Shown in pieces: positions 10,508 to 36,131 of a stretch of DNA of 36,366 nucleotides; the first letter of the stretch is position 1, and every line of letters starts with the position of its first letter. The DNA comes from an uncultured Methanosarcinales archaeon. Lineage in GTDB: Archaea; Nanobdellota; Nanobdellia; Woesearchaeales; CAYSVS01. The notes under the pieces were generated by a model. The model saw only the letters and a program-made list of their open reading frames with translations. It was not told the DNA's origin and searched no databases. The translations under genes and the position numbers were made by a program. The stretch spans positions 1 to 36,366 of the forward strand of contig CAZPRK010000010.1 in the NCBI GenBank assembly GCA_964589485.1. Direction: 5' to 3'.

Positions 10508-11350
10508 ATGGAATCAGATAAAGCACTTGTTGTATTTGAAGATAAGAAAATAAGAAGAATTTGGCATAATGGTGAATGGTGGTTTTGTATAAATGATATA
10601 GTTACCATACTTATTGATACTGTTAATGCTTCTGATTATATTAAAAAGCTTAAAATTCGAGATGATGAGTTGAACAAAGGGTGGGGACAAATTGTCACCC
10701 CCCTTTCAATTGAAACATCTGGAGGTGTACAAAAGTTGAATTGTACTTCAACAAAAGGAGCTTTTAGGGTTATTCAATCTATTCCTTCTAAGAAAGCTGA
10801 GCCTTTTAAACAATGGTTAGCTGAAGTTGGTTATGAAAGAATTCAAGAAATAGAAAACCCTGAGCTTGCACAGGATAGAGCTAAAGCATATTATGAACAA
10901 AAAGGATATCCTAAAAGTTGGATTGATAAAAGACTTCGTGGAATTGCTGTTCGTCAAGACTTAACAGATGAATGGAAAAATAGAGGCGTAGAACATAAAA
11001 ATCAATTTTCGATACTTACAAACGAAATTTCTAAGGCAACATTTGGTTTAGATATAAAAGAACATAAAAAAGTCAAAGGTCTTGATCCTAAATTTAAAAA
11101 TAGAAATTTAAGAGATCATATGACTGACTTAGAACTTATTTTTAATATGCTTGGAGAAGCATCAACAACTGAAATTGCAAAGGAGAACGATTTTCAAGGC
11201 TTCAAAGAAAATAAAATTGCTGCAAAAGAAGGTGGGAAAATATCTGGAAATGCTAGAAAAAGCTTAGAGCAAAAAACAAAGAAACAAGTTGTAAGTTCAA
11301 ATAATTATCTCTATCTAAATAATAAAAAGATCAAACAACATAATCAATAG
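10508..11350 (+). CDS. Bro-N domain protein (phage antirepressor/DinD-like family)
   Basis: IRRIWHNGEWWF, RVIQSIPSKKAEPFKQWLA, NLRDHMTDLELIF. Confidence 0.85.
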   Translation: MESDKALVVFEDKKIRRIWHNGEWWFCINDIVTILIDTVNASDYIKKLKIRDDELNKGWGQIVTPLSIETSGGVQKLNCTSTKGAFRVIQSIPSKKAEPFKQWLAEVGYERIQEIENPELAQDRAKAYYEQKGYPKSWIDKRLRGIAVRQDLTDEWKNRGVEHKNQFSILTNEISKATFGLDIKEHKKVKGLDPKFKNRNLRDHMTDLELIFNMLGEASTTEIAKENDFQGFKENKIAAKEGGKISGNARKSLEQKTKKQVVSSNNYLYLNNKKIKQHNQ

Positions 11351-13537: not shown

Positions 13538-16500
13538 ATGATGAAAAAGGTATTGTTCACAGTATTTCTTTTCTTATCTATAATCTTTATTGTTAATGCA
13601 GATTTTGAAATTCAAGCTAATTTATTATGTACTACATGTGACACATGTAATTCTCAAATTGTAGCTGCAGATCCTGGCGATTATGTATTGCTTACTGCAA
13701 ATGTTGAAACTACGGTTAAGACTTGTATTAATATATCTAGAGGTGATATTCTTTTTTCTTGTTATGGTGGAACTGAAATAAAAGGAAATGGAAGTTATGC
13801 AATCTTGATAAATAGGTCTGTTCATAATGTTTCGAGATTAACCATTGACAGTTGTAGAATAAATGGTTGGGAAAAAGGTATATTTGCAAGGAATGTAGTT
13901 AATATTACTATGTCTAATTTATCTATAAGCAACACTTCAATTGAAGGAATACATTTGGTTTCTACTAAGAATATTACTATTGTTAGAAGTAACTTTACCC
14001 ATAACATTAATAATATAAGAGGAATCAATGTTACTAATGTACTTTTAGGTAATAATACTTTTTTGCATTCACAAGGTTTAATTATTAATAGAGGAAAAAC
14101 TCCGACAATCACTTATAGCGTTTTTAAAAATATTTCAACTTTAGCTTTGCGAATAGATAATTCAACAAATGTAACTATTAATTGGAATAATTTTACAAAT
14201 GTAAATAATAGTATAAATATAAAGAATAGTAGTAATGTTTCTGTTACAGATAATGTATTTAATAAATCAAAAAGTTTAATTTTCAACTTAACTAATAACT
14301 TTAATTTTAGTAGAAATACATTTCTTGGAAACTCTACTTCAGAGTTGCTTCATTTTGAACGAACTCATTACGGTGGAATAATAAAAAATACGTTCTACAA
14401 CCCATTAGGTAATAGGTTAGTTCACTTATTACACTCTAAAACTGAAGCTTTTAGTAATAATACTTTAATAAATGGAACTAATGCTGTGTATTTAGAAAAT
14501 ATGACTACTTTAAATTTTACTTATAATAATTTGACAAATTTTATTGGAGTGGGAGTTTCTATTCAACAATCTCCAGTTGGAAGATTTTCTTATAATCGTT
14601 TTTATAATGTAACAATTGGTTTGAAAATGCTTGATACTGACTCCGATACTAAAACTATCTTCAAAAATATTTTTAATATATCTACTACTGCAATAATTTT
14701 GAATAATTCTATTAATTTAGAAGTTCTAAATAATACTATTGATAATGCAACATATGGAATAAAAATGTTTAATGCAGAAACGCACATTATAGAAAATAAT
14801 ACAATAATAAATGTTCAAAATCCTTATTATAAAGAATTTAATTTGAGTAGTGTTAATTCCGATACAAATACAAATGTGACTAGTTTATTAAAGTTATATA
14901 GTGAATTTGGTATTATTAATTTTTTAAATACAGTTGATTATTCTAGTTTATTTGATTTTAGTAGTATTCTAGGAAGTAATAATATTTCTGCAAATACAAG
15001 TGCAAATCCAGGATTAAATTCATCAGCAGAAATTAATTTGTATGATGTTGATTATGTTAACGTTGGATTAGAATTTGAACAAGATGGAGAGTGGAATTAT
15101 TGTGATAATTCTAGATGTAATGTATTAAATTATTCAGATAATAATTTGTTATTTAATGTAACTCAATTTTCAGGTCTTAGAGCAAGAGGCGATAATATAG
15201 GTTTATCATCAGATGCAGATGCAGGAGATAGACGTGAAGATGAAGAAATTTTCTTTGAAAATAATTTCACTAATGTATCAAGAAGTACATATACTTCTGG
15301 TGTAACTTGTACTATTCAATTTAATTTAAGCGATGGATGGACAAATGCAACTAACATGAGTCTTGATGGAGCGTTTAAGTCAAGTTATGCTTTTACTGAT
15401 CCTGGAACTTACGTTTGGCTAGTTGTTTGTAACAATTCTGGTTCATTAATTAATTTTTCTAGTTCAATAAGTGTATTGGCTAGAGTTACTGTTGGAATAA
15501 CAACATCAAGTGGAGCTAGTAGAGTTTTTAGTTTTATTCCTACAGACGCTTCAGATATAGAAGCGTCAATAGAGGAAGGTAAAAATATCTTCATAAATTC
15601 TCCTGATTATGTTTCTTTAACGAATGAACATAGTCAACGAATAGCAGAGTCAATGAAAGATACTATTCCAGAAGATTGGGTTAATGTTGAAGTAAAAAAA
15701 ATAGATGATTCATCTGAAACTACAATTGCCACTATAGCCACTTTAGATGCAAGCGAAAAGTTTATTGTTGATAAAAAAGCAAAAGATACAATGGGTAGTT
15801 TAAGAGAAAATACTAGAAGAGCACAAATTGCAACAATACCCACAACAAATCATTTAACAACTTATACAGTTATTAATAAAGACACAGGTGAAACTGTAAA
15901 TAGATCTGCAATAAGTGTTGCTTTTTCAGCTGAATATAATATGTCAAACACTTCTATTATACAAATTATTCCTAAAAATATAGCTCTCTCAGCTTCTGAA
16001 TTAAAATTTATTGGAAAGCAACCAACAATATTACAAGATGATCCTATTGTTGAATGGACAGTAGATAACATGAGAAAAGGAGATTCTAAAGAATTTACTT
16101 ACATTGTAAAAAGAAAAGTAACTAAATTAGAAACTATTGTAATTGGAAGTGGAAAGTACGAAGATAGAGTAACTGGAGAAAACTTACCTTGTTCTAATAT
16201 TTCTAAAGGTAATTTGTCTAGACCAGTTACATCACTTAAAGCTGAAGTAAAAGATGAAGAAATTACTCCTGGGTATGAAGTTGCTATTCCTGCATTTAAT
16301 TTAAAATGTGATGGTGAAGATATTGACTTTACAGTAAGCGTTCCTTTAGAATATACTGATGTTAAAATTTTAAAATGTACAGATGAAGGTTGCCTTCCTA
16401 AAGAAAAGAAAACTGTAACTGAATTAAAATGTGGAAATAAAATTATTAGAGAAACTGTAATAGAAGAAGAGTTTGGTGGATTTGTTCCGATAAACATTTC

Positions 16501-17920
16501 TAATGTTACTATAAATTATGATGAATTCAAGCAAGCTTTTGAAAGTATGAAATTAATGGATTTTTATGATAATAAAGATGAATTTATTTTAGAAACTTCA
16601 GCAATACAACCACAAAATCCTAATTTGAAAATATTAGGTGCGCCTATTAAGATAAGGTTAGAAAATTTAGAAGAAACTTCAATTACTTTGCCTGTCATTA
16701 CTGCAATGGGTTTTGAAGATAACTCTCAAAATATTTATGTTAAAACTAATGACTTAGAATGGCAATATATTGGTGGAGAAATAAAAGATAACTTTATTAC
16801 CGCTACAATTCCAAAAGAATATTTTATTAATAATGAAATTGAAGTTGCAGTAATGGGTATTTTATGTTTAAATTGTATTGAAGCTGAGATGGAAATGGCT
16901 TATTCTCCTGATAAATCAAGTAAAGATGTTGTTGTTTTAGTTCATGGTTTAGCATCTTCTCCTGCAACTTATGAAGATATTTTAAAAGATATTAGGTTAA
17001 CTGAACAACCTTTTAATGTATTAACTTTTGCTTATCCAACTTCACATCCTATAAAGAAAAGTGCAGAAAAATTTGCAAGTTTATTGGAAGAACATGTTAA
17101 AAACTTTGATAATGTTTACATAGTTGCACATTCAATGGGAGGATTAGTTACTCAACAGGGTTTAAATTTAACTAGAGACAAAAAATATGTTCAAAAGATT
17201 AAGAAAGTTGTTTTAGTAGGAACGCCAAATGAAGGTGTCCCTGAAGTTGATTCTTTAGGTTTAATGTTTCAATTTTTAGTTAATTTAAAGACAGAAAATA
17301 AAATGTTTAATCTTAGAAGTGGAGTAGTTGAAGAACTTGCAAAAGGAATGATTACTCCAAGGTTAGATCATATTGATTATTATGTAATTGCTGGAGAAAA
17401 ACCTTTTAGATTTTCAAAAGCTTTGAATATAAATGAAACCAATGATGGTATAGTAACAGTTCCAAGTGCTCAACGTGTTGGTGATGGATATCTTACCAAT
17501 CAGTGTAAAGATTTCTGGGGTTTAAAGTTATCCCATAATGAATTAATTGATAATGTTGTTTCAAGAAAATTAATTGAAAGGATTGTAGCTGAAGAAATTT
17601 TAAAAGGAAATGATGATAACAGTTTATTAGGAAATACTCAATTTTTTGAGTTTAATGTTAACGATTGTTCTCCTGATGACAAATACGTTGTTATAGGTGT
17701 TAAATTAAATCAAAGTGAAATTTATGATCCAACTGGATGTAGTTGCGGTAATGGTGTTTGTGGTCAAGGAGAAGATGAAACAAGTTGTCCTTCAGATTGT
17801 GCTGTATTCGAGATAAGAACAAAATCAAATTTAAGTATATTGGGGCTAATATTAGTTTTTATTTCTTTAATTTACTTTCTTAGTCATAGAAAGAAATTAA
17901 AAAGAAAACGATCTAAATAA
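13538..17920 (+). CDS. Large membrane-anchored surface protein: parallel beta-helix repeats, alpha/beta-hydrolase domain, Cys-rich module, C-terminal TM
   Basis: Signal peptide; Asn-rich 'I.NN.F' repeats; VLVHGL, AHSMGG, GTPNEG, NDGIV; CGNGVC..GED..SCP.DC; hydrophobic tail followed by RKKLKRKRSK. Confidence 0.85.
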   Translation: MMKKVLFTVFLFLSIIFIVNADFEIQANLLCTTCDTCNSQIVAADPGDYVLLTANVETTVKTCINISRGDILFSCYGGTEIKGNGSYAILINRSVHNVSRLTIDSCRINGWEKGIFARNVVNITMSNLSISNTSIEGIHLVSTKNITIVRSNFTHNINNIRGINVTNVLLGNNTFLHSQGLIINRGKTPTITYSVFKNISTLALRIDNSTNVTINWNNFTNVNNSINIKNSSNVSVTDNVFNKSKSLIFNLTNNFNFSRNTFLGNSTSELLHFERTHYGGIIKNTFYNPLGNRLVHLLHSKTEAFSNNTLINGTNAVYLENMTTLNFTYNNLTNFIGVGVSIQQSPVGRFSYNRFYNVTIGLKMLDTDSDTKTIFKNIFNISTTAIILNNSINLEVLNNTIDNATYGIKMFNAETHIIENNTIINVQNPYYKEFNLSSVNSDTNTNVTSLLKLYSEFGIINFLNTVDYSSLFDFSSILGSNNISANTSANPGLNSSAEINLYDVDYVNVGLEFEQDGEWNYCDNSRCNVLNYSDNNLLFNVTQFSGLRARGDNIGLSSDADAGDRREDEEIFFENNFTNVSRSTYTSGVTCTIQFNLSDGWTNATNMSLDGAFKSSYAFTDPGTYVWLVVCNNSGSLINFSSSISVLARVTVGITTSSGASRVFSFIPTDASDIEASIEEGKNIFINSPDYVSLTNEHSQRIAESMKDTIPEDWVNVEVKKIDDSSETTIATIATLDASEKFIVDKKAKDTMGSLRENTRRAQIATIPTTNHLTTYTVINKDTGETVNRSAISVAFSAEYNMSNTSIIQIIPKNIALSASELKFIGKQPTILQDDPIVEWTVDNMRKGDSKEFTYIVKRKVTKLETIVIGSGKYEDRVTGENLPCSNISKGNLSRPVTSLKAEVKDEEITPGYEVAIPAFNLKCDGEDIDFTVSVPLEYTDVKILKCTDEGCLPKEKKTVTELKCGNKIIRETVIEEEFGGFVPINISNVTINYDEFKQAFESMKLMDFYDNKDEFILETSAIQPQNPNLKILGAPIKIRLENLEETSITLPVITAMGFEDNSQNIYVKTNDLEWQYIGGEIKDNFITATIPKEYFINNEIEVAVMGILCLNCIEAEMEMAYSPDKSSKDVVVLVHGLASSPATYEDILKDIRLTEQPFNVLTFAYPTSHPIKKSAEKFASLLEEHVKNFDNVYIVAHSMGGLVTQQGLNLTRDKKYVQKIKKVVLVGTPNEGVPEVDSLGLMFQFLVNLKTENKMFNLRSGVVEELAKGMITPRLDHIDYYVIAGEKPFRFSKALNINETNDGIVTVPSAQRVGDGYLTNQCKDFWGLKLSHNELIDNVVSRKLIERIVAEEILKGNDDNSLLGNTQFFEFNVNDCSPDDKYVVIGVKLNQSEIYDPTGCSCGNGVCGQGEDETSCPSDCAVFEIRTKSNLSILGLILVFISLIYFLSHRKKLKRKRSK

Positions 17921-24925: not shown

Positions 24926-25237
24926 TTGAGGGAAATAATACAAAGCCTAAAGGTGTGTGAAAAAGAATCCACTAAGATTTTAGAAAAGGCTGAAACTGAT
25001 TCTTTGGCTATGGTTGAGAATGCTAAAGAAAAAGCAAAACAAAGCATAGGCAAACTTTATACTAAAATCGAAAATAATAGACAGAAAAATTTGAAAAAAG
25101 CAGAAGCAGAAATCGATGAAGAAATTAAGACATTAAAATCAGACTCTGATAAACAACTAAAATCTCTTGAAACAAGTTTTTCTAAAAATAAAGTGAAAGC
25201 AAAAAAAGAAATTATTAAGGTGTTATTAGGAGATTAA
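24926..25237 (+). CDS. atpH: A/V-type ATP synthase peripheral stalk subunit H (G)
   Basis: Charged helical ~100-aa protein first in operon; AGGTGA RBS, TTG start. Confidence 0.8.
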   Translation: MREIIQSLKVCEKESTKILEKAETDSLAMVENAKEKAKQSIGKLYTKIENNRQKNLKKAEAEIDEEIKTLKSDSDKQLKSLETSFSKNKVKAKKEIIKVLLGD

Positions 25238-25240
25238 TTT

Positions 25241-27160
25241 ATGTTTAGGTCTTCAGATATGCAGAAAGCTAGTCTTTTTGCTGTTTCAAATGAAAGAGAA
25301 AAAGTTTTAAGTAAAATACATGAAACTGGGTTGCTTCAATTAATTGATTTAAAGGGAAGTGATATAGATTTAGAATTATCGAACCCAGGAAGTGAATTAA
25401 AAGAAATTTCTGATAAATTACTTAGAGTTTCTAGATTAGTTACAATTATGAAACTTGCACCTAGAAAGCTTTCTTTTACACAAGAGTTATTTGGTTTAGA
25501 GTTAATGGATAAAGAACATGTAAAAAGAGAAAGTAAAAAAGTAATGATAAAACATGCTGAACAATTTTTAGACAAAAATGAAGAAAAATTATTAACATTA
25601 GAAGAAGAAAATTTAACTTTAAATGAAAAAATTAATGTATTAAATGATCAAAAGAAATTAATTGTATTGTTGACAAACTTAGGAATTCCTTTAGATGAAA
25701 TTCAAACTTCCAATAAAATTTTATTCACATTAGGAAGAATTAATAATATTAATTTAGATAACTTCAAAAAAGATTGTGAAGATGACTTAAATGAATTATG
25801 TCATTTTGATGTTAGAGAAGAAAATAATAAAGAATCAGTTATAACTTTAATTACAGTTAAAGAAGATGAACATAAAGTAAATTTGTTAACTAAAAAACAT
25901 TCACTTTTAACGTTTGCTCTACCAGACTTAGAAAAACCAACAGTTGAATTTGTTGATAATGCGATTGAAACTTCAATCCAAAGAAGAATTAAGTTAATTG
26001 AAGAAATTTCAGAATTTAGAAAGAAAGTATTTGCAAATGCTATTAAATATAGAGAAGAATTAGAACTATTAAAAGAAAAATATGAAGCTATTCATAAAAC
26101 TATGAATTCTGAAAAATTCTTTTTATTAACAGGATGGGTTAGTAAAGAAAATATTAAAAAATTAGAAGATAGTTTGAAAAATTTAGCTGTAATTACTTTT
26201 GAAGACCCTAAGGAAGAAGATATTGTTCCAGTAGAAACAACTAATCCAAGGTGGCTAAAACCATTCGAAGTATTAACTGAATTATATTCTTTGCCAAAGT
26301 ATAAAGATTTAGATCCTACTTTTATTGTTGGTCCAATTTTTGTAATTTTTGCAGGGTTTATGTTAACTGACTTTGTATATGGTTTAGGGTTAGTAGTATT
26401 AGGAAGTTTTCTAATCAAAAAATTTGGCAAGTATAGCCAAGGATTAAATGATATTTCAATTAGCATTTTATTAATTGGAATTTTTTCAATGTTTTTTGGT
26501 GTTTTAACTGGAAGTTATTTAGGAGATATGATGCAATATATTAATCCTAGTTGGACTTCTAAAAATTTAGCATTCTGGGGAGATCCTTTATCAGATCCAT
26601 TATATTTTTTAATTATTAGTTTAGGAGTAGCATTAGTTCATGTAAATGTAGGTTTAATTATGGGTTTAACCGAAGACATAAGAAAAAAAGAATATAAAAC
26701 TGCTCTAGGTGATAGAATAGTTTGGTTTATTATACAAATTGGAATTGCATTATGGGCAACTGGATTTTTAGCTACTTTTGGTAAGATATTATTTGGGTTA
26801 GGTGTATTAATAAAAGTAAGCACAGCTGGTCCACTTGGATTATTAGACATTACAGGTTTTATGGGAGATGTAATAAGTTATTCTAGATTATTTGCATTAG
26901 CTTTGAGTACAGCTGGAATTGCAATGACTGTAAATTTATTAGCAGATTTACTTAGCGGAGTACCTTTTATTGGCTTTTTTTTAGCTGCTTTGATTTTCAT
27001 TGTAGGTCATTTATTTAGTTTCGCAATGAATGCATTAGGTGGTTTTGTTCATAGTATTAGGTTACAGTTTGTAGAATTTTTTGGAAAATTTTATGAAGGT
27101 GGCGGAGATAGATTTTTACCATTTAAAGAAGAAAGAACTTATACTGAGGTTAAAAAATGA
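25241..27160 (+). CDS. atpI: A/V-type ATP synthase subunit I (a)
   Basis: LPKYKDLDPT, GFMLTD, DVISYSRLFAL (essential Arg), HSIRLQFVEFF. Confidence 0.96.
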   Translation: MFRSSDMQKASLFAVSNEREKVLSKIHETGLLQLIDLKGSDIDLELSNPGSELKEISDKLLRVSRLVTIMKLAPRKLSFTQELFGLELMDKEHVKRESKKVMIKHAEQFLDKNEEKLLTLEEENLTLNEKINVLNDQKKLIVLLTNLGIPLDEIQTSNKILFTLGRINNINLDNFKKDCEDDLNELCHFDVREENNKESVITLITVKEDEHKVNLLTKKHSLLTFALPDLEKPTVEFVDNAIETSIQRRIKLIEEISEFRKKVFANAIKYREELELLKEKYEAIHKTMNSEKFFLLTGWVSKENIKKLEDSLKNLAVITFEDPKEEDIVPVETTNPRWLKPFEVLTELYSLPKYKDLDPTFIVGPIFVIFAGFMLTDFVYGLGLVVLGSFLIKKFGKYSQGLNDISISILLIGIFSMFFGVLTGSYLGDMMQYINPSWTSKNLAFWGDPLSDPLYFLIISLGVALVHVNVGLIMGLTEDIRKKEYKTALGDRIVWFIIQIGIALWATGFLATFGKILFGLGVLIKVSTAGPLGLLDITGFMGDVISYSRLFALALSTAGIAMTVNLLADLLSGVPFIGFFLAALIFIVGHLFSFAMNALGGFVHSIRLQFVEFFGKFYEGGGDRFLPFKEERTYTEVKK

Positions 27161-30100
27161 GCATTCCATATTATAGTTATTTACAAACCCAGGGAATTTT
27201 ACAGGAAGCTGTAAATAATATGACAAAGACAGTTGTTGAAACATCTGTTGATTTAAGTAATGTTACAATTAATAATTCAATTACAACTTCTGGAATGTTT
27301 GGTGGTATGTTTAATATTGGGATTGATCCTATGTATTTAGCTATAATAGGAGCAGGTATCGCAGTAGGTGTTTCTGGAATTGCATCAGCTATTGGAGCCG
27401 GAATTGCAGGAAGTACTGGAGCGAAAGCTGTAGCTGAAGATCCTAAACAATTTTCAACTGCATTATTATTTCAAGCTTTACCTCAAACTCAAGGTATTTA
27501 TGGTTTTTTAATTGCAATTTTAATATTATTGGGAGCAGGTGTAGTTGGAACTGTAAAACAAATCACATTAGCTCAAGGTTTAGGTGCTTTAGGTGCTGGT
27601 TTAGCAGTTGGAATTGCAGCAGTTTCAGCAATTGGTCAAGGTATTGCAGCAAGTGCAGGAATTGGAGCAGTAAAAGAAGATAAAAAAATGTTTGGTAAAA
27701 GTATTTTATTCTCAGTTTTGCCAGAAACTCAGGCATTATATGGTTTTATTATTTCTATTTTAATATTAATAGGTGTAGGGTTATTCGGAGCTGTAACAAA
27801 AAATATTCCTGAAGTATTAGGATGGGCTTCAGTTGGTGCAGGTTTAGCAGCAGGTATTGCTGGAATTTCAGCTTTAGGTCAAGGAATTGCGGCAGCCGGT
27901 GGAATTGGAGCTGTATTAGAGAGAAGTAAAGTTTTTGGTAAGAGTATTTTATTCTCAGTTTTGCCAGAAACTCAAGCATTATATGGATTTATAATTGCAG
28001 TATTGATATTAATAGGGTTTGGAATTTTAGGTGTTCCACAATCTGAATTTAATTTAGCTTTAGGAATGTTTGCAATAGCTGCAGGGTTAAGTGTAGGTAT
28101 TTCAGGAATTTCTGCAGTAGGTCAAGGTATGGCAGCTTCAGCCGGTATTGGAAGTATTGCAGAAGATGATAAAATGTTTGGTAAAAGTATTTTATTTTCA
28201 GTCTTGCCAGAAACTCAAGCATTATATGGATTTTTAATTGGAGTTTTAATTTTAGTTGGTGGTGGGTTAATTGGTGGAATAAAAGTTGGCATTACAACTC
28301 CTATAGGTGTTATTGCAATAGGCGCAGCTTTAAGTGCAGGTTTTGCAGCAGTTTCAGCTATAGGTCAAGGTATGTCTGCTTCTTCAGGAATAAAGTCAGT
28401 TACAGAAAAACCAAGTATGTTTGGTAAAAGTATTATATTTAGTATCATTCCTGAAACTCAAGCTTTAATGGGATTTTTAATTGCTATATTATTATTAATA
28501 GGTTCAGGTATTATTGGTTCAGCTAAAGCGGGACTTAGCATGGGCAGTGGTTTAATTGCAATAGGTGCAGGAGTTGCTGTTGGTTTAGCTGCTGTGTCTG
28601 CAGTAGGTCAAGGATATGTTGTAAGTTCAAGTATTACTAACGTTACAAGAAATGCGAAAATGTTTGGTAAAAGTTTATTATTCAGTGTACTTCCTCAAAC
28701 TCAAGCATTATATGGATTTTTAATTGCAATTTTATTATTAGTTGGAGGTGGTCTTGTAGGCGGAGTTAAGTCAGGACTTTCTACTTCAATAGGTTTAGTT
28801 GCAATTGGAGCTGGATTAGCAGTTGGTCTTTCTGCAATGTCAGCAATTGGTCAAGGACTAGTTGCAAGTAGTGCAGTAAATGCAGTTTCAAGAAATAATA
28901 AAATGTTTGGTAAAAGTATTTTATTTTCAGTCTTGCCAGAAACTCAAGCACTATATGGATTTTTAGTAGCTATAATTCTGTTAGTATCAGGTGGATTAAT
29001 TGGTGCTTCATCAACTAGTATTATTACTCCAATGGGAATTGTTGCAATTGGCGCTGCAATTAGTGTTGGGTTTGGAGCAATTTCAGCTATAGGTCAAGGA
29101 ACTTCTGCAGCTAGCGGAGTTACTGCAACTTCTGAAAAACAAAGTATGTTTGGTAAAAGTATTATATTTAGTATTATTCCTGAAACTCAAGCTTTAATGG
29201 GTTTTTTAATTGCAATTTTAATGTTGATTGGTGCAGGGTTAATGGGAAAAATTGCATATTCTATTTCGATAGCTCATGGGGTTGTAGCAGTGGGTGCAGG
29301 TTTTGCTGTCGGTATGGCTGCTATTTCAGCTATAGGTCAAGGGTTTGCAGTTTCAACATCTATTAATGCAGTAACCCAAGATGCAAAAATGTTTGCAAAA
29401 AGTTTATTGTTTTCAGTTATTCCACAAACTCAAGCTTTAATGGGTTTTTTAATCGCAATATTAATATTAATTGGCAGTGGATTAGTAGGAAGTATTAACA
29501 TGGCTATAACTACTGCAAATGGTCTTGTAGCAATAGGTGCAGGATTTGCTGTAGGATTAGGAGCATTATCTGCAGTAGGTCAAGGTTTTGTTATTTCATC
29601 TGCTATAACTACAGTAACACAAGATAACAAAATGTTTGGTAAAGGTTTATTGTTTAGTGTTCTTCCACAAACTCAAGCATTGTATGGATTTTTAGTTGCA
29701 ATTTTACTTCTTGTAGGAGGAGGATTAATAGGCGGAAGTGCTTTAGATTTACATATTCCTGTTGGATTACTTGCAATGGGTGCAGGGTTAGCTGTTGGTT
29801 TAGCAGCAGCTTCAGCTATTGGTCAAGGATTAGTTGCAGGAAGTGGTATAACTGCAGTTAAGGAAGATAATAAAATGTTTGGTAAAGCTATATTGTTTTC
29901 AGTCTTGCCAGAAACTCAAGCATTGTATGGATTTTTAATCGCAATTTTATTATTAGTAGGCGGTGGATTAATAGGTACATTAAATTTAGCATTAACTGTT
30001 CCTTTAGGTTTAGTTGCAATTGGAGCAGGGTTAAGTGTCGGAGTTGCTGCAGTTTCAGCTATAGGTCAAGGTGTAGCTGCAAGTAGCGGTGTTGCTTCAG

Positions 30101-30462
30101 TTCAAGAAAATAGTAAAATGTTTGGTAAAAGTATTTTATTTTCAGTATTACCAGAAACTCAAGCGTTATATGGAACAATAATATCTATTCTTTTAATGAC
30201 TGGTGTTGGTATAATGGGTGTTATTAAATCTGGAGTAACTATGTTACAAGGATTTGGTGCAATAGGCGCAGGATTAGCTATAGGTTTTGCTGCAATATCA
30301 GCATTAGGTCAAGGAATAATTTCAGCAAGTAGTATAGGTGCAAGTTTAAAAGATGCAAAAAGTATGGGTAAAGGATTAGTATTAAGTGTAATCCCTGAAA
30401 CATATGCTATCTTTGGATTATTAATTTCAATTTTAATGTTGTTAGGACTTAAAATAATTTAA
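27157..30462 (+). CDS. atpK: A/V-type ATP synthase proteolipid subunit K (c) with 13 fused hairpins
   Basis: 13 copies of G-A-G-L...SAxGQG...F.K..LF..LP(E/Q)TQA.YGF, between atpI and atpE. Confidence 0.96.
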   Translation: MSIPYYSYLQTQGILQEAVNNMTKTVVETSVDLSNVTINNSITTSGMFGGMFNIGIDPMYLAIIGAGIAVGVSGIASAIGAGIAGSTGAKAVAEDPKQFSTALLFQALPQTQGIYGFLIAILILLGAGVVGTVKQITLAQGLGALGAGLAVGIAAVSAIGQGIAASAGIGAVKEDKKMFGKSILFSVLPETQALYGFIISILILIGVGLFGAVTKNIPEVLGWASVGAGLAAGIAGISALGQGIAAAGGIGAVLERSKVFGKSILFSVLPETQALYGFIIAVLILIGFGILGVPQSEFNLALGMFAIAAGLSVGISGISAVGQGMAASAGIGSIAEDDKMFGKSILFSVLPETQALYGFLIGVLILVGGGLIGGIKVGITTPIGVIAIGAALSAGFAAVSAIGQGMSASSGIKSVTEKPSMFGKSIIFSIIPETQALMGFLIAILLLIGSGIIGSAKAGLSMGSGLIAIGAGVAVGLAAVSAVGQGYVVSSSITNVTRNAKMFGKSLLFSVLPQTQALYGFLIAILLLVGGGLVGGVKSGLSTSIGLVAIGAGLAVGLSAMSAIGQGLVASSAVNAVSRNNKMFGKSILFSVLPETQALYGFLVAIILLVSGGLIGASSTSIITPMGIVAIGAAISVGFGAISAIGQGTSAASGVTATSEKQSMFGKSIIFSIIPETQALMGFLIAILMLIGAGLMGKIAYSISIAHGVVAVGAGFAVGMAAISAIGQGFAVSTSINAVTQDAKMFAKSLLFSVIPQTQALMGFLIAILILIGSGLVGSINMAITTANGLVAIGAGFAVGLGALSAVGQGFVISSAITTVTQDNKMFGKGLLFSVLPQTQALYGFLVAILLLVGGGLIGGSALDLHIPVGLLAMGAGLAVGLAAASAIGQGLVAGSGITAVKEDNKMFGKAILFSVLPETQALYGFLIAILLLVGGGLIGTLNLALTVPLGLVAIGAGLSVGVAAVSAIGQGVAASSGVASVQENSKMFGKSILFSVLPETQALYGTIISILLMTGVGIMGVIKSGVTMLQGFGAIGAGLAIGFAAISALGQGIISASSIGASLKDAKSMGKGLVLSVIPETYAIFGLLISILMLLGLKII
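27331..30453 (+). repeat. 13 diverged tandem coding repeats, period 243 nt (81 aa)
   Basis: P(E/Q)T codons start at 27481, 27721, 27964, 28207, 28450, 28693, 28936, 29179, 29422, 29665, 29908, 30151, 30394 (first spacing 240, all others 243). Confidence 0.95.
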
Positions 30463-30474
30463 GGTGTATAAAAA

Positions 30475-31023
30475 ATGAGCTTAGAAAAAATTAAACAAAA
30501 AATTTTAGATGAAGCAAAAGAAGCTTCAGAAAAAACCAAGTCAGTATATCAAGAAAAAGTTGACGAAATTGTTAGTGACAATAAGAAAGAAATGGAAACA
30601 ATTTCTCAAAAAAAAGACGATGAAATTAATGCAGAAATTGTATTATTTAAAAAAAATGCAATAGCAAGACAAAAGTTATCTTTACAATCAAAGTATTTGG
30701 TAAGAAGGGAAGAGATATTTAATTCTCTTTTAACGGATGCATTGAAAAGTGTTGATGCTAATTTGGTTAAGGAATATATGAAAACTGTTCTTGATGAAAA
30801 TAAAGATTTATCTGGAAAAGTAACAGTAACTTGTTCAAAAGAATATATTGAGTTTGTTAATTCAAATACAAAATTTTCAAATTTTGAAGTAATTGAATCA
30901 AAAGATGATTCTTTTACTATCGCATCTGATTCAGGATTAAGAATCAATGGATCTTTAAATGCGTTAGTTGAAAGAAAAAAAAGTGAATTAAGACAAGGAG
31001 CCATCAAGGCTTTAGGTGTATAA
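30475..31023 (+). CDS. atpE: A/V-type ATP synthase subunit E
   Basis: MSLEKIKQKILDEA helical N-terminus; operon position. Confidence 0.88.
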   Translation: MSLEKIKQKILDEAKEASEKTKSVYQEKVDEIVSDNKKEMETISQKKDDEINAEIVLFKKNAIARQKLSLQSKYLVRREEIFNSLLTDALKSVDANLVKEYMKTVLDENKDLSGKVTVTCSKEYIEFVNSNTKFSNFEVIESKDDSFTIASDSGLRINGSLNALVERKKSELRQGAIKALGV

Positions 31024-31025
31024 AT

Positions 31026-32066
31026 ATGGATGTAGTAGTATTTGGAGCAATTGCAGCTAGTTTAGTTGCAGGAACTGTAGTTATTTGGCCTACTGTGCAA
31101 ATGACAATTGGTTTAGCTCCGCACATTTATGCTAATACTAGATGTAGTGCAAAACTTGCACAATTACTCCCAGATACATTTACAGATAATTTACTTCAAT
31201 CAGTTTCATATGAAGAATCATTATCTTTACTTGAAGATTCTTATTATAGAGTTTATGTAGAAAAGTCAAGAGATTTTGTTAAACTTAGTTCAATGTTAAA
31301 TCAAGATTTATATTTAACGTATCGATGGTTAGAAACAATTGTTCCTGAAAATATGGTTCCAATAATAAAAACACTTAGAATTAAGTTTGAAATTGGTGAT
31401 ATTAAAGAATTGTTTAATAATTTAAAAAATAAAATAACAGAACATAAACTTCCTCATGTTCAAGATGAAAATTTAAAATTAAAGTTAGAAAATACAACTG
31501 ATTTTGCATCATTAATGGCGTCATTTGAAGGAACTGAGTATAGTACTATTTTTGCTAATAAAAATCTTACACAACTCGATAGCATAAATAATGAATTAGA
31601 TAAATTTTATTTTGAAAAAGTTTTTGATGTCATTTCAGCTTCTGAAGATGAAAAAGCAGCAGTGGCATTTAAAGAATATTTTAGTTATTTAGTAGATTTA
31701 ATAAATTTAAAATTAACTCTTCGAAGAATTGATAAAAAATCTTCATTAGATTTATTAGATCATGGAAGAATTTCAAAAGAATCATTAGAAGATATTGAAG
31801 ATTTAAATGCTTTTGAGAATTTATTATCTCAATTTGGTTATAATGAAAATATTGTTGAATATACTCCTTTTGAGATTGAAAATAGCGTATACAAATATAT
31901 GAAGAAAGCTTCAGGGTTAATTAACTCAAAACATAGCTTAAAGTCAGGAAGTGTTGTAAGATATATTATGCTTAAAGAAATTGAAATTAGGAATGTAAAT
32001 ATTATTTTAAAATTAAAGTCAGATAACTTCAATAAAGAAGAAATTCAAAAGGTGTTAGTATTATGA
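31026..32066 (+). CDS. atpC: A/V-type ATP synthase subunit C (d)
   Basis: YANTR, DLINLK..LR, KEIEIRNV; N-terminal hydrophobic segment. Confidence 0.9.
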   Translation: MDVVVFGAIAASLVAGTVVIWPTVQMTIGLAPHIYANTRCSAKLAQLLPDTFTDNLLQSVSYEESLSLLEDSYYRVYVEKSRDFVKLSSMLNQDLYLTYRWLETIVPENMVPIIKTLRIKFEIGDIKELFNNLKNKITEHKLPHVQDENLKLKLENTTDFASLMASFEGTEYSTIFANKNLTQLDSINNELDKFYFEKVFDVISASEDEKAAVAFKEYFSYLVDLINLKLTLRRIDKKSSLDLLDHGRISKESLEDIEDLNAFENLLSQFGYNENIVEYTPFEIENSVYKYMKKASGLINSKHSLKSGSVVRYIMLKEIEIRNVNIILKLKSDNFNKEEIQKVLVL

Positions 32067-32368
32067 TGCAGATTGCTTTAATAGGAGATGAAGATACTAT
32101 TAACGGGTTTATGTTAGCTGGGGTAAAACATAGTATAAAATATAGAGAAGATAAGCTTGAAGAAGATTTGAAAAAATTTTCAGAAGCAAAAGTTTTAGTA
32201 TTTACAGAAAAAGTTGGAGAACAATTAAGAAAAACTGGATTAATTGATAAAATTGAAAATACATATTTAGAAATTCCAGATAAAACTGGTTCAAGTGGCC
32301 AGGCAATGCAAAAAATAAGTAATTTATTTGAGAGTGCAATTGGAATTGCACTAAAAGAAAACGAATAA
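32063..32368 (+). CDS. atpF: A/V-type ATP synthase subunit F
   Basis: IALIGDEDTINGFMLAGV, EIPDKTG. Confidence 0.93.
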   Translation: MMQIALIGDEDTINGFMLAGVKHSIKYREDKLEEDLKKFSEAKVLVFTEKVGEQLRKTGLIDKIENTYLEIPDKTGSSGQAMQKISNLFESAIGIALKENE

Positions 32369-32379
32369 GGTGATTCACG

Positions 32380-34116
32380 ATGGAAGGAAAAATTATCAAA
32401 ATATCAGGACCTGTTGTTGTAGCTTCAGGCATGAAAGGAGTTCAGATGTATGAAGTTGTTAAAGTAGGAGATGAAGGATTAGTTGGTGAAGTAATTGAAC
32501 TTCATGAAGATACAGCGACAATTCAAGTATATGAAGAAACTACAGGGATTGCACCTGGCTCAAAAGTTGTATCTACTGGTGCAAGTTTAAGTGTTGAATT
32601 AGGTCCAGGAATTATAGGTAATATTTATGATGGGATATTAAGACCATTAGATAAAATTAAAGAACAAACTGGAGCATTTCTTGCGAGAGGTGTTGAAGCA
32701 GATTCAATTAACCATAAGAAAAAATGGAAATTTGTTCCAAAATTAAAAAAAGGAGAAGATGTTACTCCTGGAATGATTATTGGAGAAGTAAAAGAAACTT
32801 CAGTAGTTGTACAAAAAATTTTAGTTCCACCTGGTGTAGAGGGTGAACTTAAAAAAATATCAAAGGAAGGAGAATATACTGTAGAAGATGTTGTAGCTGT
32901 TGTAGGCGATACTGATATTAAATTAAGTCAAAAATGGCCGGTTAGAATTCCTCGTCCAGTAATTGATAAATTAGAACCTACTTTACCTTTAGTTACAGGA
33001 ATGAGAATTATTGATACTTTTAATCCAGTTGCAAAAGGAGGAACAGCTTGTACTCCAGGACCGTTTGGAAGTGGAAAAACTGTTACACAACAAAGTATTG
33101 CAAAATGGTGTGATGCAGATATTATTGTTTACATTGGTTGTGGTGAAAGAGGAAACGAAATGACTGATGTATTGCAACAGTTTCCGACTATTAAAGATCC
33201 ACGAACAGGAAAAGCATTACTTGAAAGAACAATTATTATTGCAAATACCTCAAATATGCCAGTTGCAGCTAGAGAAGCTTCAGTTTATACTGGAATTACA
33301 ATTGCTGAATATTTTCGAGACATGGGATTTGATGTAGCTTTAATGGCTGATTCAACATCAAGATGGGCAGAAGCAATGAGAGAAATTTCAGGAAGATTAG
33401 AAGAAATGCCTGGTGAAGAAGGTTATCCTGCTTATTTATCAACAAGGTTAGCTCAATTTTACGAAAGAGCTGGACGTGTAAAAACATTAAATAAAGATGA
33501 AGGAAGTGTTACTGTAATTGGAGCAATTAGTCCACCTGGTGGAGATTTTTCAGAACCAGTTACACAGAATACATTAAGAGTTAATAAAACGTTTTGGGCT
33601 TTAGATAAAAATTTAGCTTCAAGGAAACACTTTCCCGCAATTAATTGGTTAAATAGTTATTCTTTATATTTAGATTCAGTTACTGATTGGTATAAAGATA
33701 ATGCAGGAGATAAATGGCGTGATCTTAGAGATGAAGCAATGAGATTATTACAAAAAGAAGAACAGTTACAGGAAATTGTTCAGTTAGTTGGTCCAGATGC
33801 TTTACCTGATAACGAAAGATTAGTTTTAGAAGTTACTAAAATTATCAGAGAAGATTTTTTACAACAAAATGCTTATCATGAAGTGGATTCATATTGTCCT
33901 TTATCAAAACAAGTATTTATGCTTGAATTAATCTTGGAATGGTTTTCACTTTCAAATGCAAAATTAACTCAAGGTGTAAGTATACACGATATTTCAGATA
34001 TGAAAATAAAGGAAGAGTTAGCGAGAATGAAAGAATTTAATAATGATAAATTCGAAGATCATTATAAAACATTAACAAAACAAATGGCCGAAGAATTTGA
34101 GGCTATGAAGGCGTAG
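32380..34116 (+). CDS. atpA: A/V-type ATP synthase catalytic subunit A
   Basis: [37 protein letters not shown]; no intein. Confidence 0.98.
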
Positions 34117-34129
34117 GAGGCACATTACA

Positions 34130-35512
34130 ATGAAACAAAAAACAATGGAGTATAGTTCAATTAAAGAAATATCAGGTCCTTTAATGATTGTTAAGGGAGT
34201 TGAGGGTGTTGCTTACGGTGAATTAGTAGAAATTCAATCTGAAGATGGTCAAAAAAGAAATGGACAAGTCCTTGAAGCTAAAGATGATTTAGCAGTTGTT
34301 CAAGTTTTTGAAGGAACAAGAGGTTTAGATACTAAACATACATCAGTAAGGTTTACAGGAGAGACAATGAAGATAGGAGTTTCCGAAGAAATGATTGGAA
34401 GAATTTTTAATGGACTTGGAAAACCAATAGATAATAATCCTGAAATAGTTCCAGAAGCTAATTTAGATATTAATGGGCAGGCTATTAATCCTGCAGCTAG
34501 AGAATTCCCTGAAGAGTTTATTCAAACAGGTGTAAGCGCGATAGACGCTATGAGTACTTTAGTAAGAGGACAAAAACTTCCAATTTTTTCAGAAGCTGGT
34601 TTGCCACATAATCAATTAGCAGCACAAATTGCAAGACAAGCAAAAGTTTTAGGAAAAGGTGAAAAGTTCGTTGTTGTTTTTGCAGCAATGGGAATTACTT
34701 TTGAGGAAAGTAAATTTTTTATGAATGACTTTGAAAGGACTGGTGCAATTGAAAATATGGTTGCGTTTATCAATTTAGCAGACGACCCGGCAATTGAAAG
34801 AATTATCACACCTAGAATTGCATTAACAACAGCTGAATATTTAGCTTTTGAGAAAGATATGCATGTATTGGTTATTTTAACTGACTTTACAAATTATTGT
34901 GAAGCTTTAAGAGAAATTGCAGCTGCAAGAAATGAAATCCCTGGGCGAAGAGGATACCCAGGATACATGTATACTGATTTAGCGATGAGTTATGAAAGAG
35001 CTGGTAAGTTAGAAGGTAAAAAGGGAAGTGTTACTCAAATCCCAATTTTAACAATGCCACAAGGTGACATAAGTCACCCTATTCCTGACTTAACTGGTTA
35101 TATTACTGAAGGACAAGTTGTTGTTAGTAATGAATTACATAGAAATGGTGTTTATCCACCGATTGATGTTTTACCATCTTTATCAAGACTTATGAATGAA
35201 GGTATTGGTGAAGGTAAAACTAGGGAAGATCATAGTGGTGTAGCTAACCAGTTATATAGTGCATATGCTGAAGGAAGAGATTTAAGAGATTTAGTTGCCG
35301 TTGTAGGTGAAGAAGCTCTAAGTGAAAGGGATAAAAAAATCTTAAAGTTTGCATCATTATTTGAAAATGAATTTATTCGACAAGCAAATAGTGAAAATAG
35401 AGATGTAACTAAAACTCTTGGAATTGGTTGGAAATTATTAGGAACCTTACCAGAAAAAGAGTTAAAGAAAATTAAACTTGAGCACATTTCAAAATATTAT
35501 CCAAAGAAGTAA
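34130..35512 (+). CDS. atpB: A/V-type ATP synthase subunit B
   Basis: [37 protein letters not shown]. Confidence 0.98.
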
Positions 35513-35513
35513 A

Positions 35514-36131
35514 ATGGCATCAAAAACTATAATTGCAACACGTATGGAGCTGTTAAAGCTTAAGAAAAAGATTAAGCTAGCTCAGAAAGGACATAAACTT
35601 TTAAAAGAAAAAAGAGATGCTTTAATTGGTGAATTTTTTACTTTAATGGAAGGGTTAAAAACTCAAAGAAAAGATGTAGATTACGCTTTAGAAAAAGCAT
35701 TTAAATCTTTAAGTTTATCTACAGCTATTTCTGGATCTGATGAAATTAAGCGTGCAGCTTATTCTACTGATGAAATGGGTGAAATTGTCCAAAAGAAAAA
35801 TACAATTATGGGAGTTAGTGTTCCTATTTTTGAATTTGAATCTAAAATTGATAGAAAGTATAGTCATTTGTCAACTAATGTTGAGTTAGATACAGCTTCA
35901 AGATATTTTGATAAAGCTCTTAATAAAATGGTAAAATTAGCTGAACTTGAAGCAACTGCTACAAAGTTAGCTGATGAAATTAAAAAAACTAAACGTAAAG
36001 TAAATGCATTAGAACAAAGGTTAATTCCTAACTTGAATAAAGATATTATTTACATTAAAATGCGTTTAGAAGAAATGGAAAGAGAAAATTTCTCTAGATT
36101 AAAAGTTATTAAGAAGAGAATTGAAGCGTAG
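35514..36131 (+). CDS. atpD: A/V-type ATP synthase subunit D
   Basis: TRMEL, GHKLLKEKRDAL, IKKTKRKVNALE, ERENFSRLK; start at ATG 35514 just after the atpB stop. Confidence 0.96.
   Translation: MASKTIIATRMELLKLKKKIKLAQKGHKLLKEKRDALIGEFFTLMEGLKTQRKDVDYALEKAFKSLSLSTAISGSDEIKRAAYSTDEMGEIVQKKNTIMGVSVPIFEFESKIDRKYSHLSTNVELDTASRYFDKALNKMVKLAELEATATKLADEIKKTKRKVNALEQRLIPNLNKDIIYIKMRLEEMERENFSRLKVIKKRIEA

Follow-up and report, generated by a model that had tools for sequence, protein, structure and literature searches.

The window analysed here, a stretch of 36,366 nucleotides (nt) with ~27% G+C from contig CAZPRK010000010.1 of an uncultured archaeon (assembly GCA_964589485.1), carries an intact A-type adenosine triphosphatase (ATPase) operon on its forward strand, with the gene order H-I-K-E-C-F-A-B-D (Table 1). 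Pfam matches above cut-off were obtained for subunits I, C, F, A, B and D. The subject of this work is the gene of the proteolipid subunit K, which lies between the genes for I and C. It adjoins the stator subunit I gene, whose stop codon overlaps the K start codon (ATGA), and it is the only K gene in the operon as seen within this 36-kb window. All 13 hairpins are encoded in this single open reading frame (ORF): PF00137 matches it 13 times, each time in a stretch of its own (642.7 bits, cut-off 24; E = 3.1e-198), and P[EQ]T, the motif of helix 2, is found 13 times and no more, spaced by 80 amino acids (aa) once and by 81 aa eleven times. A first-pass annotation of the DNA had placed an asymmetric rotor at 27481-30420; these positions do span the Pro codon of the hairpin 1 motif to the end of the hairpin 13 motif, whereas the gene itself runs from 27157 to 30462. 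The Na+ motif of this K subunit is complete at nine of its 13 hairpin interfaces, and the remaining four deviate from it in a coordinated manner.

Among solved chains, the best match of hairpins 4-5 is E. hirae NtpK (2bl2; HMMER, E = 1.6e-19), and the alignment places the L-x-x-T-Q-x-x-Y of one hairpin on NtpK L61, T64, Q65 and Y68, and the GQG Gln and PET Glu of the next hairpin on NtpK Q110 and E139. As described in the available part of PMC2359735, the Na+ ligands of NtpK are E139, Q110, T64, the L61 carbonyl and Q65, while Y68 is non-ligating, sits below the ion and has a stabilising effect on the Glu; the corresponding Tyr of I. tartaricus is contributed by the neighbouring subunit. The premise of the first-pass annotation, namely that T/Q/Y of one hairpin and Q/E of the next build the NtpK site, is thus supported by both the alignment and that source. 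By analogy, each ion site of K would sit between two neighbouring hairpins, the preceding one (the donor) supplying the Leu52 backbone carbonyl, Thr55, Gln56 and a supporting Tyr59, and the following one (the acceptor) supplying Gln25 from helix 1 and, from helix 2, the carboxylate Glu54 (numbers are columns of the hairpin model). A Na+ rule given in the available part of a preprint (10.64898/2026.10.01.756066) asks for E[STQ][STQ]xxY together with a helix-1 Q/E, and the complete (live) K sites match it at nine of 13 interfaces. Judged by these motifs, the live sites appear to be of the NtpK type, with Na+ as the presumed ion. An AlphaFold2 model of K, built from a 14-sequence alignment, reached a mean predicted local distance difference test (pLDDT) score of 79.2 and a predicted template modelling (pTM) score of 0.82, and its top fold match in the PDB is again NtpK (2bl2_A; template modelling score 0.87 on the target, root-mean-square deviation 1.6 A over 149 columns, 38% identity). 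Solved V/A rings consist of 12 single hairpins with the Thermus K sequence (132 chains, 11 entries) or of ten double hairpins of NtpK (50 chains, 5 entries), and given these ring sizes a ring of 13 hairpins is plausible.

The carboxylate pattern over hairpins 1-13 of K is QEEEEQEEQQEEE, i.e., the residue after Pro is Glu in nine hairpins and Gln in four (1, 6, 9 and 10), and the corresponding Tyr pattern is YYYYMYYMMYYYF. The Tyr of TQxxY is present in hairpins 1-4, 6, 7 and 10-12, replaced by Met in hairpins 5, 8 and 9, and by Phe in hairpin 13, which reads ETYAIF. Each Glu-less (dead) acceptor thereby follows a Tyr-less donor when hairpin 13 is counted as preceding hairpin 1. The translation, with its 13 P[EQ]T motifs, bears out all three of these patterns as they had been read in the first-pass annotation. 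The equivalent of NtpK L61 (column 52) follows the same division, being Ile in the donors of all four dead sites and Leu in the donors of all nine live ones; every live interface comprises L, T, Q, Y on the donor and Q, E on the acceptor. Hairpins 1, 6 and 10 lack Glu yet keep their Tyr because the next site is live, while in hairpin 9 both residues are missing, hairpin 10 being dead as well; whether a hairpin retains its Tyr therefore tracks the state of the next hairpin and not its own. By arithmetic, four Glu-less and four Tyr-less hairpins would coincide at one cyclic shift with a chance of 1/C(13,4) = 1/715, or ~0.004 for three registers, a figure that treats the hairpins as more independent than they are, given the paralogy of 5 with 8 and that among 6, 9 and 10. 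At the codon level, Tyr (TAT) and Met (ATG) differ by three base changes, and Glu and Gln are GAA and CAA. Site-less and site-bearing hairpins do not strictly alternate in QEEEEQEEQQEEE, and their spacing is irregular. On helix 1, the motif is GQGY in hairpin 6, GQGF in hairpins 9 and 10, and GAG in hairpin 1, as the first-pass annotation had noted; an aromatic residue after GQG does not hold as a general rule, since dead acceptor hairpins of the family have F in 36%, Y in 24%, S in 24% and T in 16% of cases in this column. At the 13->1 closure, the interface (ETYAIF; GAG; PQTQ) resembles the non-site interface of NtpK, where helix 4 (VETYAIL) carries ETYAIL, helix 1 GVG and helix 2 PGTQ.

Table 1. 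Genes of the ATPase operon and hairpins of the K subunit, in positions of the window; single positions in the remarks are those of the codons named.
Feature	Position	Strand	Remarks
Subunit H (putative), peripheral stalk	24926..25237	+	weak V-ATPase_G match below cut-off (27 bits against 28.6)
Subunit I, a-type stator	25241..27160	+	PF01496
K, ahaK/ntpK-type proteolipid gene	27157..30462	+	PF00137; 1101 aa, 13 fused hairpins, 26 predicted transmembrane helices
N-terminal extension of K	27157..27324	+	residues 1-56, outside all hairpins; pLDDT <50; three N-x-S/T sequons
Hairpin 1, as acceptor	27325..27564	+	Glu-less: Gln CAA 27484; GAG not GQG (Ala 27397)
Hairpin 1, as donor (site 1->2)	27325..27564	+	full T/Q/Y, Tyr at 27499
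Hairpin 2	27565-27807	+	Glu and GQG; full donor (L52, T, Q, Y)
Hairpin 3	27808-28050	+	Glu and GQG; full donor (L52, T, Q, Y)
Hairpin 4	28051-28293	+	Glu and GQG; full donor (L52, T, Q, Y)
Live sites 1->2, 2->3, 3->4	hairpins 2, 3, 4 as acceptors	+	Glu and GQG in each
Hairpin 5	28294..28536	+	live acceptor (4->5); dead donor: Met ATG 28468, Leu52->Ile ATT 28447
Hairpin 6	28537..28779	+	dead acceptor: Gln CAA 28696, GQGY TAT 28615; Tyr donor for live 6->7
Hairpin 7	28780..29022	+	live acceptor, full donor
Hairpin 8	29023..29265	+	live acceptor (7->8); dead donor: Met ATG 29197, Ile52 ATT 29176
Hairpin 9, as acceptor	29266..29508	+	dead: Gln CAA 29425, GQGF TTT 29344
Hairpin 9, as donor	29266..29508	+	dead: Met ATG 29440, Ile52 ATT 29419
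Hairpin 10	29509..29751	+	dead acceptor: Gln CAA 29668, GQGF TTT 29587; Tyr donor for live 10->11
Hairpin 11	29752-29994	+	live acceptor, full donor
Hairpin 12	29995-30237	+	live acceptor, full donor
Hairpin 13	30238..30459	+	live acceptor (12->13); dead donor 13->1: ETYAIF, Phe TTT 30412, Ile52 ATC 30391
182-aa ORF at subunit E position	30475..31023	+	no Pfam match
Subunit C (d/AC39), socket between central stalk and ring	31026..32066	+	PF01992
Subunit F	32063..32368	+	PF01990
Catalytic subunit A	32380..34116	+	Pfam match
Subunit B	34130..35512	+	Pfam match
Subunit D, central stalk	35478..36131	+	PF01813

Relatives of K were collected by a length-restricted search (605-1927 aa), which gave 86 proteins, and by a scan of species-representative genomes, in which 451 relatives were confirmed from 474 candidate stretches and 78 loci were kept. 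Using a hidden Markov model built from the window's 13 hairpins, 164 proteins were parsed, of which 137 remained after removal of identical hairpin regions; the protein-representative matches P0087-P0232 were left out of the parse, and among the listed protein representatives only P0013, P0041, P0048 and P0079 are long forms. The closest relatives (63-72% identity) belong to assemblies whose titles name Woesearchaeota, Nanoarchaeota or Nanobdellota, and they keep the same architecture; two assemblies with Methanosarcinales in the title are probably mislabelled bins. When each carboxylate was compared with the Tyr of the preceding hairpin (register -1, with cyclic closure), 964 interfaces had both, 135 had neither, 17 had Glu only and four had Tyr only, the majority of the 135 being the inherited closure interface. 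In the control registers 0, +1 and +2, which use the Tyr of the same, the next and the next-but-one hairpin, only 1, 3 and 16 interfaces lacked both. For internal junctions, the counts were 946 with both, 16 with Glu only, none with Tyr only and 37 with neither, so that all 37 internal Glu-less hairpins of the 137 non-redundant fused K proteins follow a Tyr-less predecessor; as the proteins are related, these junctions are not independent events. Three residue solutions are found for internal dead junctions in different lineages (given as donor / acceptor helix 1 / acceptor helix 2): Q..M / QG[FYST] / Q at 27 junctions, plus one in which donor column 56 is missing, in the DPANN clade; F..F / VGI / Q at six junctions of Thermoplasmata 12-hairpin proteins; and H..S or A / QG[VI] / Q at four junctions of a third group.

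The 16 internal junctions with Glu and no preceding Tyr constitute a third kind of interface, in which the helix-1 Gln of the Glu hairpin is Leu or Ile and the Tyr of the preceding hairpin is Phe, Asn or Thr (P0021, P0024, P0035, P0075, P0076, L068, L070, L075, P0008, L009 and P0019). These interfaces may be sites of another ion preference mixed into one ring.

Within the Woesearchaeota/Nanoarchaeota clade, 25 dead and 191 live internal junctions from 20 proteins were compared, and the substitution set at dead junctions proved to be 88-100% fixed. It comprises the donor changes L52I, V51I, L48I and Y59M and the acceptor changes E54Q, I47L and A29V/I. In detail, dead donors carry M59 and I69 in 100%, I52 in 96%, and I51 and I48 in 92% of cases each, while dead acceptors carry Q54, L47 and V/I29 in 100% and V28 in 88%, and acceptor column 27 replaces Ile with the four residues given above for the family. 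The dead modules of the DPANN clade also show charge swaps in cytoplasmic loops far from the site, from Glu to Lys/Arg in acceptor column 38 and from Lys to Glu in donor column 41, which may either be hitch-hikers or mark a docking position for the central stalk. Dead hairpins are conserved like live ones, with a mean pairwise identity among orthologues of 0.79 for dead versus 0.75 for live at hairpin 6 and of 0.71 versus 0.70 at hairpin 10, and selection is therefore not relaxed. Neither the relaxed selection nor the random E/Q and Y/M patterns that the first-pass annotation had named as contrary outcomes are thus seen among homologues. A quick maximum-likelihood tree was computed from 19 clade rows and two Methanopyrus rows with the site columns removed; a positional concatenation was used because identity leaves the orthology of middle hairpins ambiguous, fragments from the C- or N-terminus were positioned starting at their ends, and the 12-hairpin proteins P0002, P0008, P0012 and P0013 were left out. 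On this tree, hairpins 6, 8, 9 and 10 underwent at least 3+1+1+5 = 10 changes between E and Q, the Tyr state of the preceding hairpin matches the E/Q state in every row, and the 2+1+1+4 = 8 independent pairs on supported branches all point in the same direction.

The number of dead sites forms a graded series on the 13-hairpin scaffold, with 13 carboxylates in seven proteins (Methanopyrus type), 12 in three, 11 in seven, ten in three and nine in a single protein, the K of the window; a further 16 proteins in total have 12 hairpins with 11, ten or nine carboxylates. The completeness filter behind these counts is crude, as L008, L059, P0022 and P0041 are contig-edge or partial pieces. With four dead sites, the window's K is the most extreme form found, its relatives carrying one, two or three on 13 hairpins. 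The suggestion of the first-pass annotation that fusion allows the ion/ATP ratio to be tuned apart from ring size fits this series. Its further claim, that short subunits in a homo-oligomer could not build such a rotor, holds in part: irregular site spacing is obtainable by fusion alone, but a similar ratio could come from QEEE or QEEEEE subunits. Since three copies of QEEE in a ring would also give 9/12 sites, fusion is not the sole route to three ions per ATP, and nine live sites also occur in the 12-hairpin proteins L017 and P0028 (QEEEEEQEEQEE). The 13->1 dead site is ancestral and older than the internal ones; a dead closure site is common to all 4-, 5-, 6-, 12- and 13-hairpin K proteins parsed, except the Methanopyrus and Asgard types. 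In the commonest relatives, hairpins 1, 6 and 10 are silent; with hairpin 1 dead, only three arrangements on 13 hairpins are spaced most evenly, and this is one of them.

Even the Methanopyrus-type K proteins show a deviation from the motif. In P0017 and P0036, and also in P0027, P0031, P0037, P0038, P0041 and L019-L021, hairpins 6, 9 and 12 carry Arg at the Gln65 equivalent (PETRAIY or PETRSIY), while hairpins 7, 10 and 13 read GQG[FVI]T and not GQGIA. With Arg in three donors, three interfaces of this supposedly all-complete rotor are therefore modified, and the Arg might act as a tethered cation within the site. The dead donors of the 12-hairpin proteins P0028/L010 are at positions 6, 9 and 12, matching these Arg positions.

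Taken together, K is probably a monomeric Na+-type ring of 13 hairpins, in which nine live sites and four uncharged, repacked ones would give nine ions per turn, or 3.0 per ATP. In such a rotor, the whole membrane ring of an A-type, Na+-motif ATPase/ATP synthase would be one polypeptide that closes upon itself. The nine complete interfaces would bind Na+ as in NtpK, while matched substitutions on both sides, with bulkier side chains, would turn 13->1, 5->6, 8->9 and 9->10 into uncharged non-sites that pass the stator without ion exchange. Nine complete interfaces would therefore allow at most nine ions per turn, compared with 4.33 ions per ATP for a fully loaded 13-hairpin ring. The hairpin count, the residue patterns, the mapping onto NtpK, the coupling across the family and the conservation are direct results, while we infer Na+ as the ion, the closed monomeric ring, the absence of ion carriage at the Gln sites and the ratio of 3.0. 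The steps between live sites would be unequal, at 1,1,1,2,1,3,1,1,2 hairpin pitches of 27.7 degrees, and the largest ion-free arc would be ~83 degrees. It could further be speculated, though we regard this as decidedly unlikely, that the fused ring is an angularly programmed rotor with a fixed stalk register, silent sectors phased to catalysis and a heritable, stepwise shift of the Na+/ATP gear. As a single chain makes each hairpin unique, the central stalk (C, D) could dock in one fixed register, which the charge-swapped cytoplasmic loops of the dead modules could set; this would place each silent sector at a set phase of the three catalytic dwells, and recombination that copies or erases a ready-made dead-site module would let cells of this clade select between 12, 11, 10 and 9 ions per turn.

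Several observations weigh against the proposed nine-site rotor. Sign tests for single hairpins are non-significant (p 0.125 to 1), and significance is reached only by the pooled 8/8 (p 0.008 by arithmetic), with pooling that is not strictly independent; the tree itself is a quick-search tree with three of 18 inner forks unresolved, as is the placement of the window's protein. In the available part of PMC8809890 (citing Mitome 2004), a single E56Q in an engineered single-chain c10 ring of the F-type enzyme from Bacillus PS3 abolished synthesis and pumping, so a Glu-less hairpin is not automatically tolerated; the tolerance assumed here would follow from the additional remodelling and from natural V-type rings. 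The same result argues, by inference, that the partner substitutions are what makes a Glu-less hairpin tolerable, and the finding from the same source that two impaired sites are least harmful when adjacent would fit the window's extra dead site, which adjoins an existing one. Moreover, the internal dead modules are paralogous copies and not independent losses, and they also differ from live modules in many loop residues outside the site. A change of state may consequently be one recombination that moves both residues, and selection on the pair is then harder to argue. The internal dead interface is best seen as one conserved two-hairpin module that is copied and erased by recombination. Of the coordinated site loss proposed in the first-pass annotation, the matched Glu/Tyr changes thus stand, but the losses are not independent, as the three internal interfaces are copies of one module and the closure is ancestral.

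These points lead to a possible, though rather unlikely, account in which the structure is the same and the dead sites are historical by-products, not a tuned gear ratio: unequal crossing-over or gene conversion among very similar hairpins would have multiplied and removed one ancestral dead two-hairpin module, or the scars left by fusion of shorter subunits, with the count drifting within tolerance. The dead acceptors 6 and 10 are indeed mutual best paralogues (73-78% identity with site-linked columns removed; hairpin 10 is the best paralogue of hairpin 6 in 4/4 proteins tested), the dead modules share the off-site residues of columns 38 and 41, the most similar hairpins in the window's DNA are 5 and 8 (77%), and hairpin 9 is a patchwork whose front is 72% identical to hairpin 10 and whose back is 73% identical to hairpin 8. 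A recent tandem duplication as the origin of hairpin 9 was rejected, its DNA being only 57-73% identical to any other hairpin. One-hairpin deletion variants are a further point in favour of this history. P0002, with 12 hairpins, equals the window's protein minus one 81-aa unit and is otherwise identical, its contig being 243 nt shorter, which also counts against the 13-hairpin reading; P0013 is likewise an exact one-hairpin deletion variant of P0009. Finally, the internal dead site of the Thermoplasmata 12-hairpin proteins has the closure signature, as a doubled 6-hairpin unit would give. Drift alone fits less well with the equal conservation of dead and live hairpins, with the near-fixed substitution set, with the same logic being reached in three lineages through different residues, and with a hairpin number that stays at 13 while the dead count runs from one to four. 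A fusion-scar origin of the internal dead sites found no support in the identity comparison, where hairpins 1 and 13 were no nearer to 6/10 or 5/9 than to the rest.

Other accounts concern the ring, its sites or the sequence itself. That two or more K chains, or K together with a proteolipid encoded elsewhere, build a larger ring with a ratio other than 3 is very unlikely. Only 36 kb of the genome is visible, and the E. hirae ring has 20 hairpins (10 chains per entry); yet most fused K proteins have around 12-13 hairpins, shorter ones being built of 4 or 6, which are divisors of 12, Thermus rings have 12, the single-chain model has a pTM of 0.82, and the operon holds one K gene only. The states of the last and first hairpins also covary (Methanopyrus Y/Q with Q/E; all others F or L with A, V or T and Q), a pattern that fits closure within one chain or between chains. 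It is highly improbable that ion binding and carriage persist at the Gln sites and that all 13 work. In favour of it, Gln25, Thr55 and Gln56 are retained at the three internal dead interfaces, but the carboxylate is the principal ligand in the available part of PMC2359735, the supporting Tyr and Leu52 are replaced along with the Glu, bulkier side chains occur around the site (A29->V/I and A28->V in the family; F/Y in column 27 of the window's three internal dead hairpins), and E56Q abolishes function in the engineered ring (PMC8809890, available part). An assembly artefact or a decaying gene is the least credible of these possibilities and almost certainly does not apply. The shorter contig of P0002 and a 28-nt exact repeat, present 243 nt apart in hairpins 8 and 9 (window 29179-29449), would suit such an origin, as the repeat flanks the missing 243-nt unit, which extends from inside hairpin 8 to the equivalent point in hairpin 9. 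However, this 81-aa unit is unique sequence, only 57-73% identical in DNA to other hairpins, and could not have been created by mis-assembly; a spurious origin of the 13-hairpin form was therefore rejected. The reading frame is unbroken, its start codon being coupled to the preceding stop, and the architecture is kept in the relatives at 63-72% identity. The one-hairpin deletion variants would then represent either assembly collapse or polymorphism in hairpin number.

How many ions are moved for each ATP by a rotary ATPase is set by the number of ion sites on its rotor, and textbook rings are symmetric homo-oligomers, so that the ratio shifts only by ring size or by regular site loss. The fused K proteins described here would form natural single-chain rings that have 13, 12, 11, 10 or 9 sites while the scaffold stays at 13 hairpins, the silent sites being irregularly placed and, in the window's K, two of them adjacent. 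This makes approachable how a rotor passes the stator over ion-free sectors of 55 and 83 degrees, which partner substitutions let a Glu-less hairpin be tolerated, and whether the uneven steps correspond to the three-fold catalytic head. At an assumed phosphorylation potential of 50 kJ/mol, arithmetic gives ~173 mV for 3.0 ions per ATP and ~120 mV for 4.33. The lower ratio would suit an ATP-driven pump that builds a high ion gradient, or synthesis at high driving force, and the difference is relevant to small fermentative archaea, which may run the enzyme as a pump. In addition, the window's K could serve as a natural template for single-chain rotor engineering.

Further features were observed around the fused rotor and its relatives. 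The N-terminus of other K subunits faces outward; the 56-residue N-terminal extension of the window's K is not hydrophobic, and with this topology it could be a glycosylated tail, while extensions in relatives range from 4 to 97 residues. Six-hairpin K proteins (P0042-P0073; Thermoplasmata loci L024-L057) have 110-320 extra N-terminal residues that consist of PKD-type domains according to precomputed Pfam assignments (PF00801, PF18911, PF22352), which would place a folded extracellular domain on a rotating ring. Proteins P0077-P0082 from Promethearchaeota (Asgard; 829-1147 aa) contain 11-15 fused hairpins with Glu in all of them, and they lack the Na+ motif because theirs reads E-A-L-x-x-Y and Ile replaces the helix-1 Gln. 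In a few records, the type of K conflicts with the title: L007, L014 and L059 (Methanosarcinales) are DPANN-like and L018 (Halanaerobiaceae bacterium) is Thermoplasmata-like, and these contigs are probably mis-binned. The remaining genes of the window are ordinary chromosomal genes, including a SUF system, cytidine triphosphate (CTP) synthase and serine pathway enzymes. Also present are a Bro-N domain protein (10508-11350, +), a domain frequent in viruses and mobile elements, and a 1460-aa protein (13538-17920, +) with right-handed beta-helix/NosD repeats and a C-terminal alpha/beta-hydrolase-like region.

While site loss after hairpin duplication is already known for V-type and some archaeal subunits, a full-text literature search that mostly did not cover subscription journals yielded the M. 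kandleri rotor and general reviews, but no account of multi-hairpin K in DPANN archaea, of fused rings whose dead sites are irregular or variable, or of a coordinated substitution set. Short relatives offer a parallel within the family, as 4-, 5- and 6-hairpin proteins of the QEEE, QEEEE and QEEEEE types have a Glu-less first and a Tyr-less last hairpin and carry fewer ions per hairpin; such subunits must oligomerise, and their dead sites are therefore regularly spaced, unlike those of the window's K. The K of M. jannaschii has two carboxylates. It is a triple hairpin, as stated in the available part of PMC2359735.

The 13-hairpin K of M. kandleri, attributed to Lolkema and Boekema 2003 in the available parts of PMC2359735 and of the preprint 10.64898/2026.10.01.756066, is described in the accessible portions of these sources and of PMC9171764 as a monomeric rotor with all sites complete. 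Like it, the window's K is one gene with 13 PF00137 hairpins, PETQxxY and GQG, at 1101 aa compared with ~1020 aa, and it shares 45-47% identity with the Methanopyrus-type relatives P0017, P0027, P0031 and P0036. However, Methanopyrus keeps Glu and Tyr in 13/13 hairpins with a complete closure site, in our parse and in the available part of PMC2359735, whereas the window's K has lost four sites; its host is a low-GC Woesearchaeota/Nanoarchaeota-like archaeon, while Methanopyrus is a hyperthermophilic methanogen. E. hirae NtpK, the best match in both sequence and fold, has the same site chemistry and geometry, but it consists of ten identical subunits with strict alternation, one site per two hairpins, whereas the window's K has 9/13 sites, irregularly spaced, in one chain, and its internal dead signature, Q..M / QG[FY] / Q, differs from the non-site interface of NtpK. 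The F/V hybrid c-ring of A. woodii (PDB 4bem), composed of nine single hairpins and one double hairpin according to the available parts of PMC9171764 and the preprint 10.64898/2026.10.01.756066, is likewise an asymmetric Na+ ring and works with one site fewer than it has hairpins, yet it is F-type, made of separate gene products and bears a single dead site. Finally, the engineered Bacillus PS3 c10 ring is, as far as the available part of PMC8809890 describes it, genetically fused like the window's K, so that sites can differ individually; it is artificial and F-type, whereas the natural K pairs E->Q with conserved partner substitutions.

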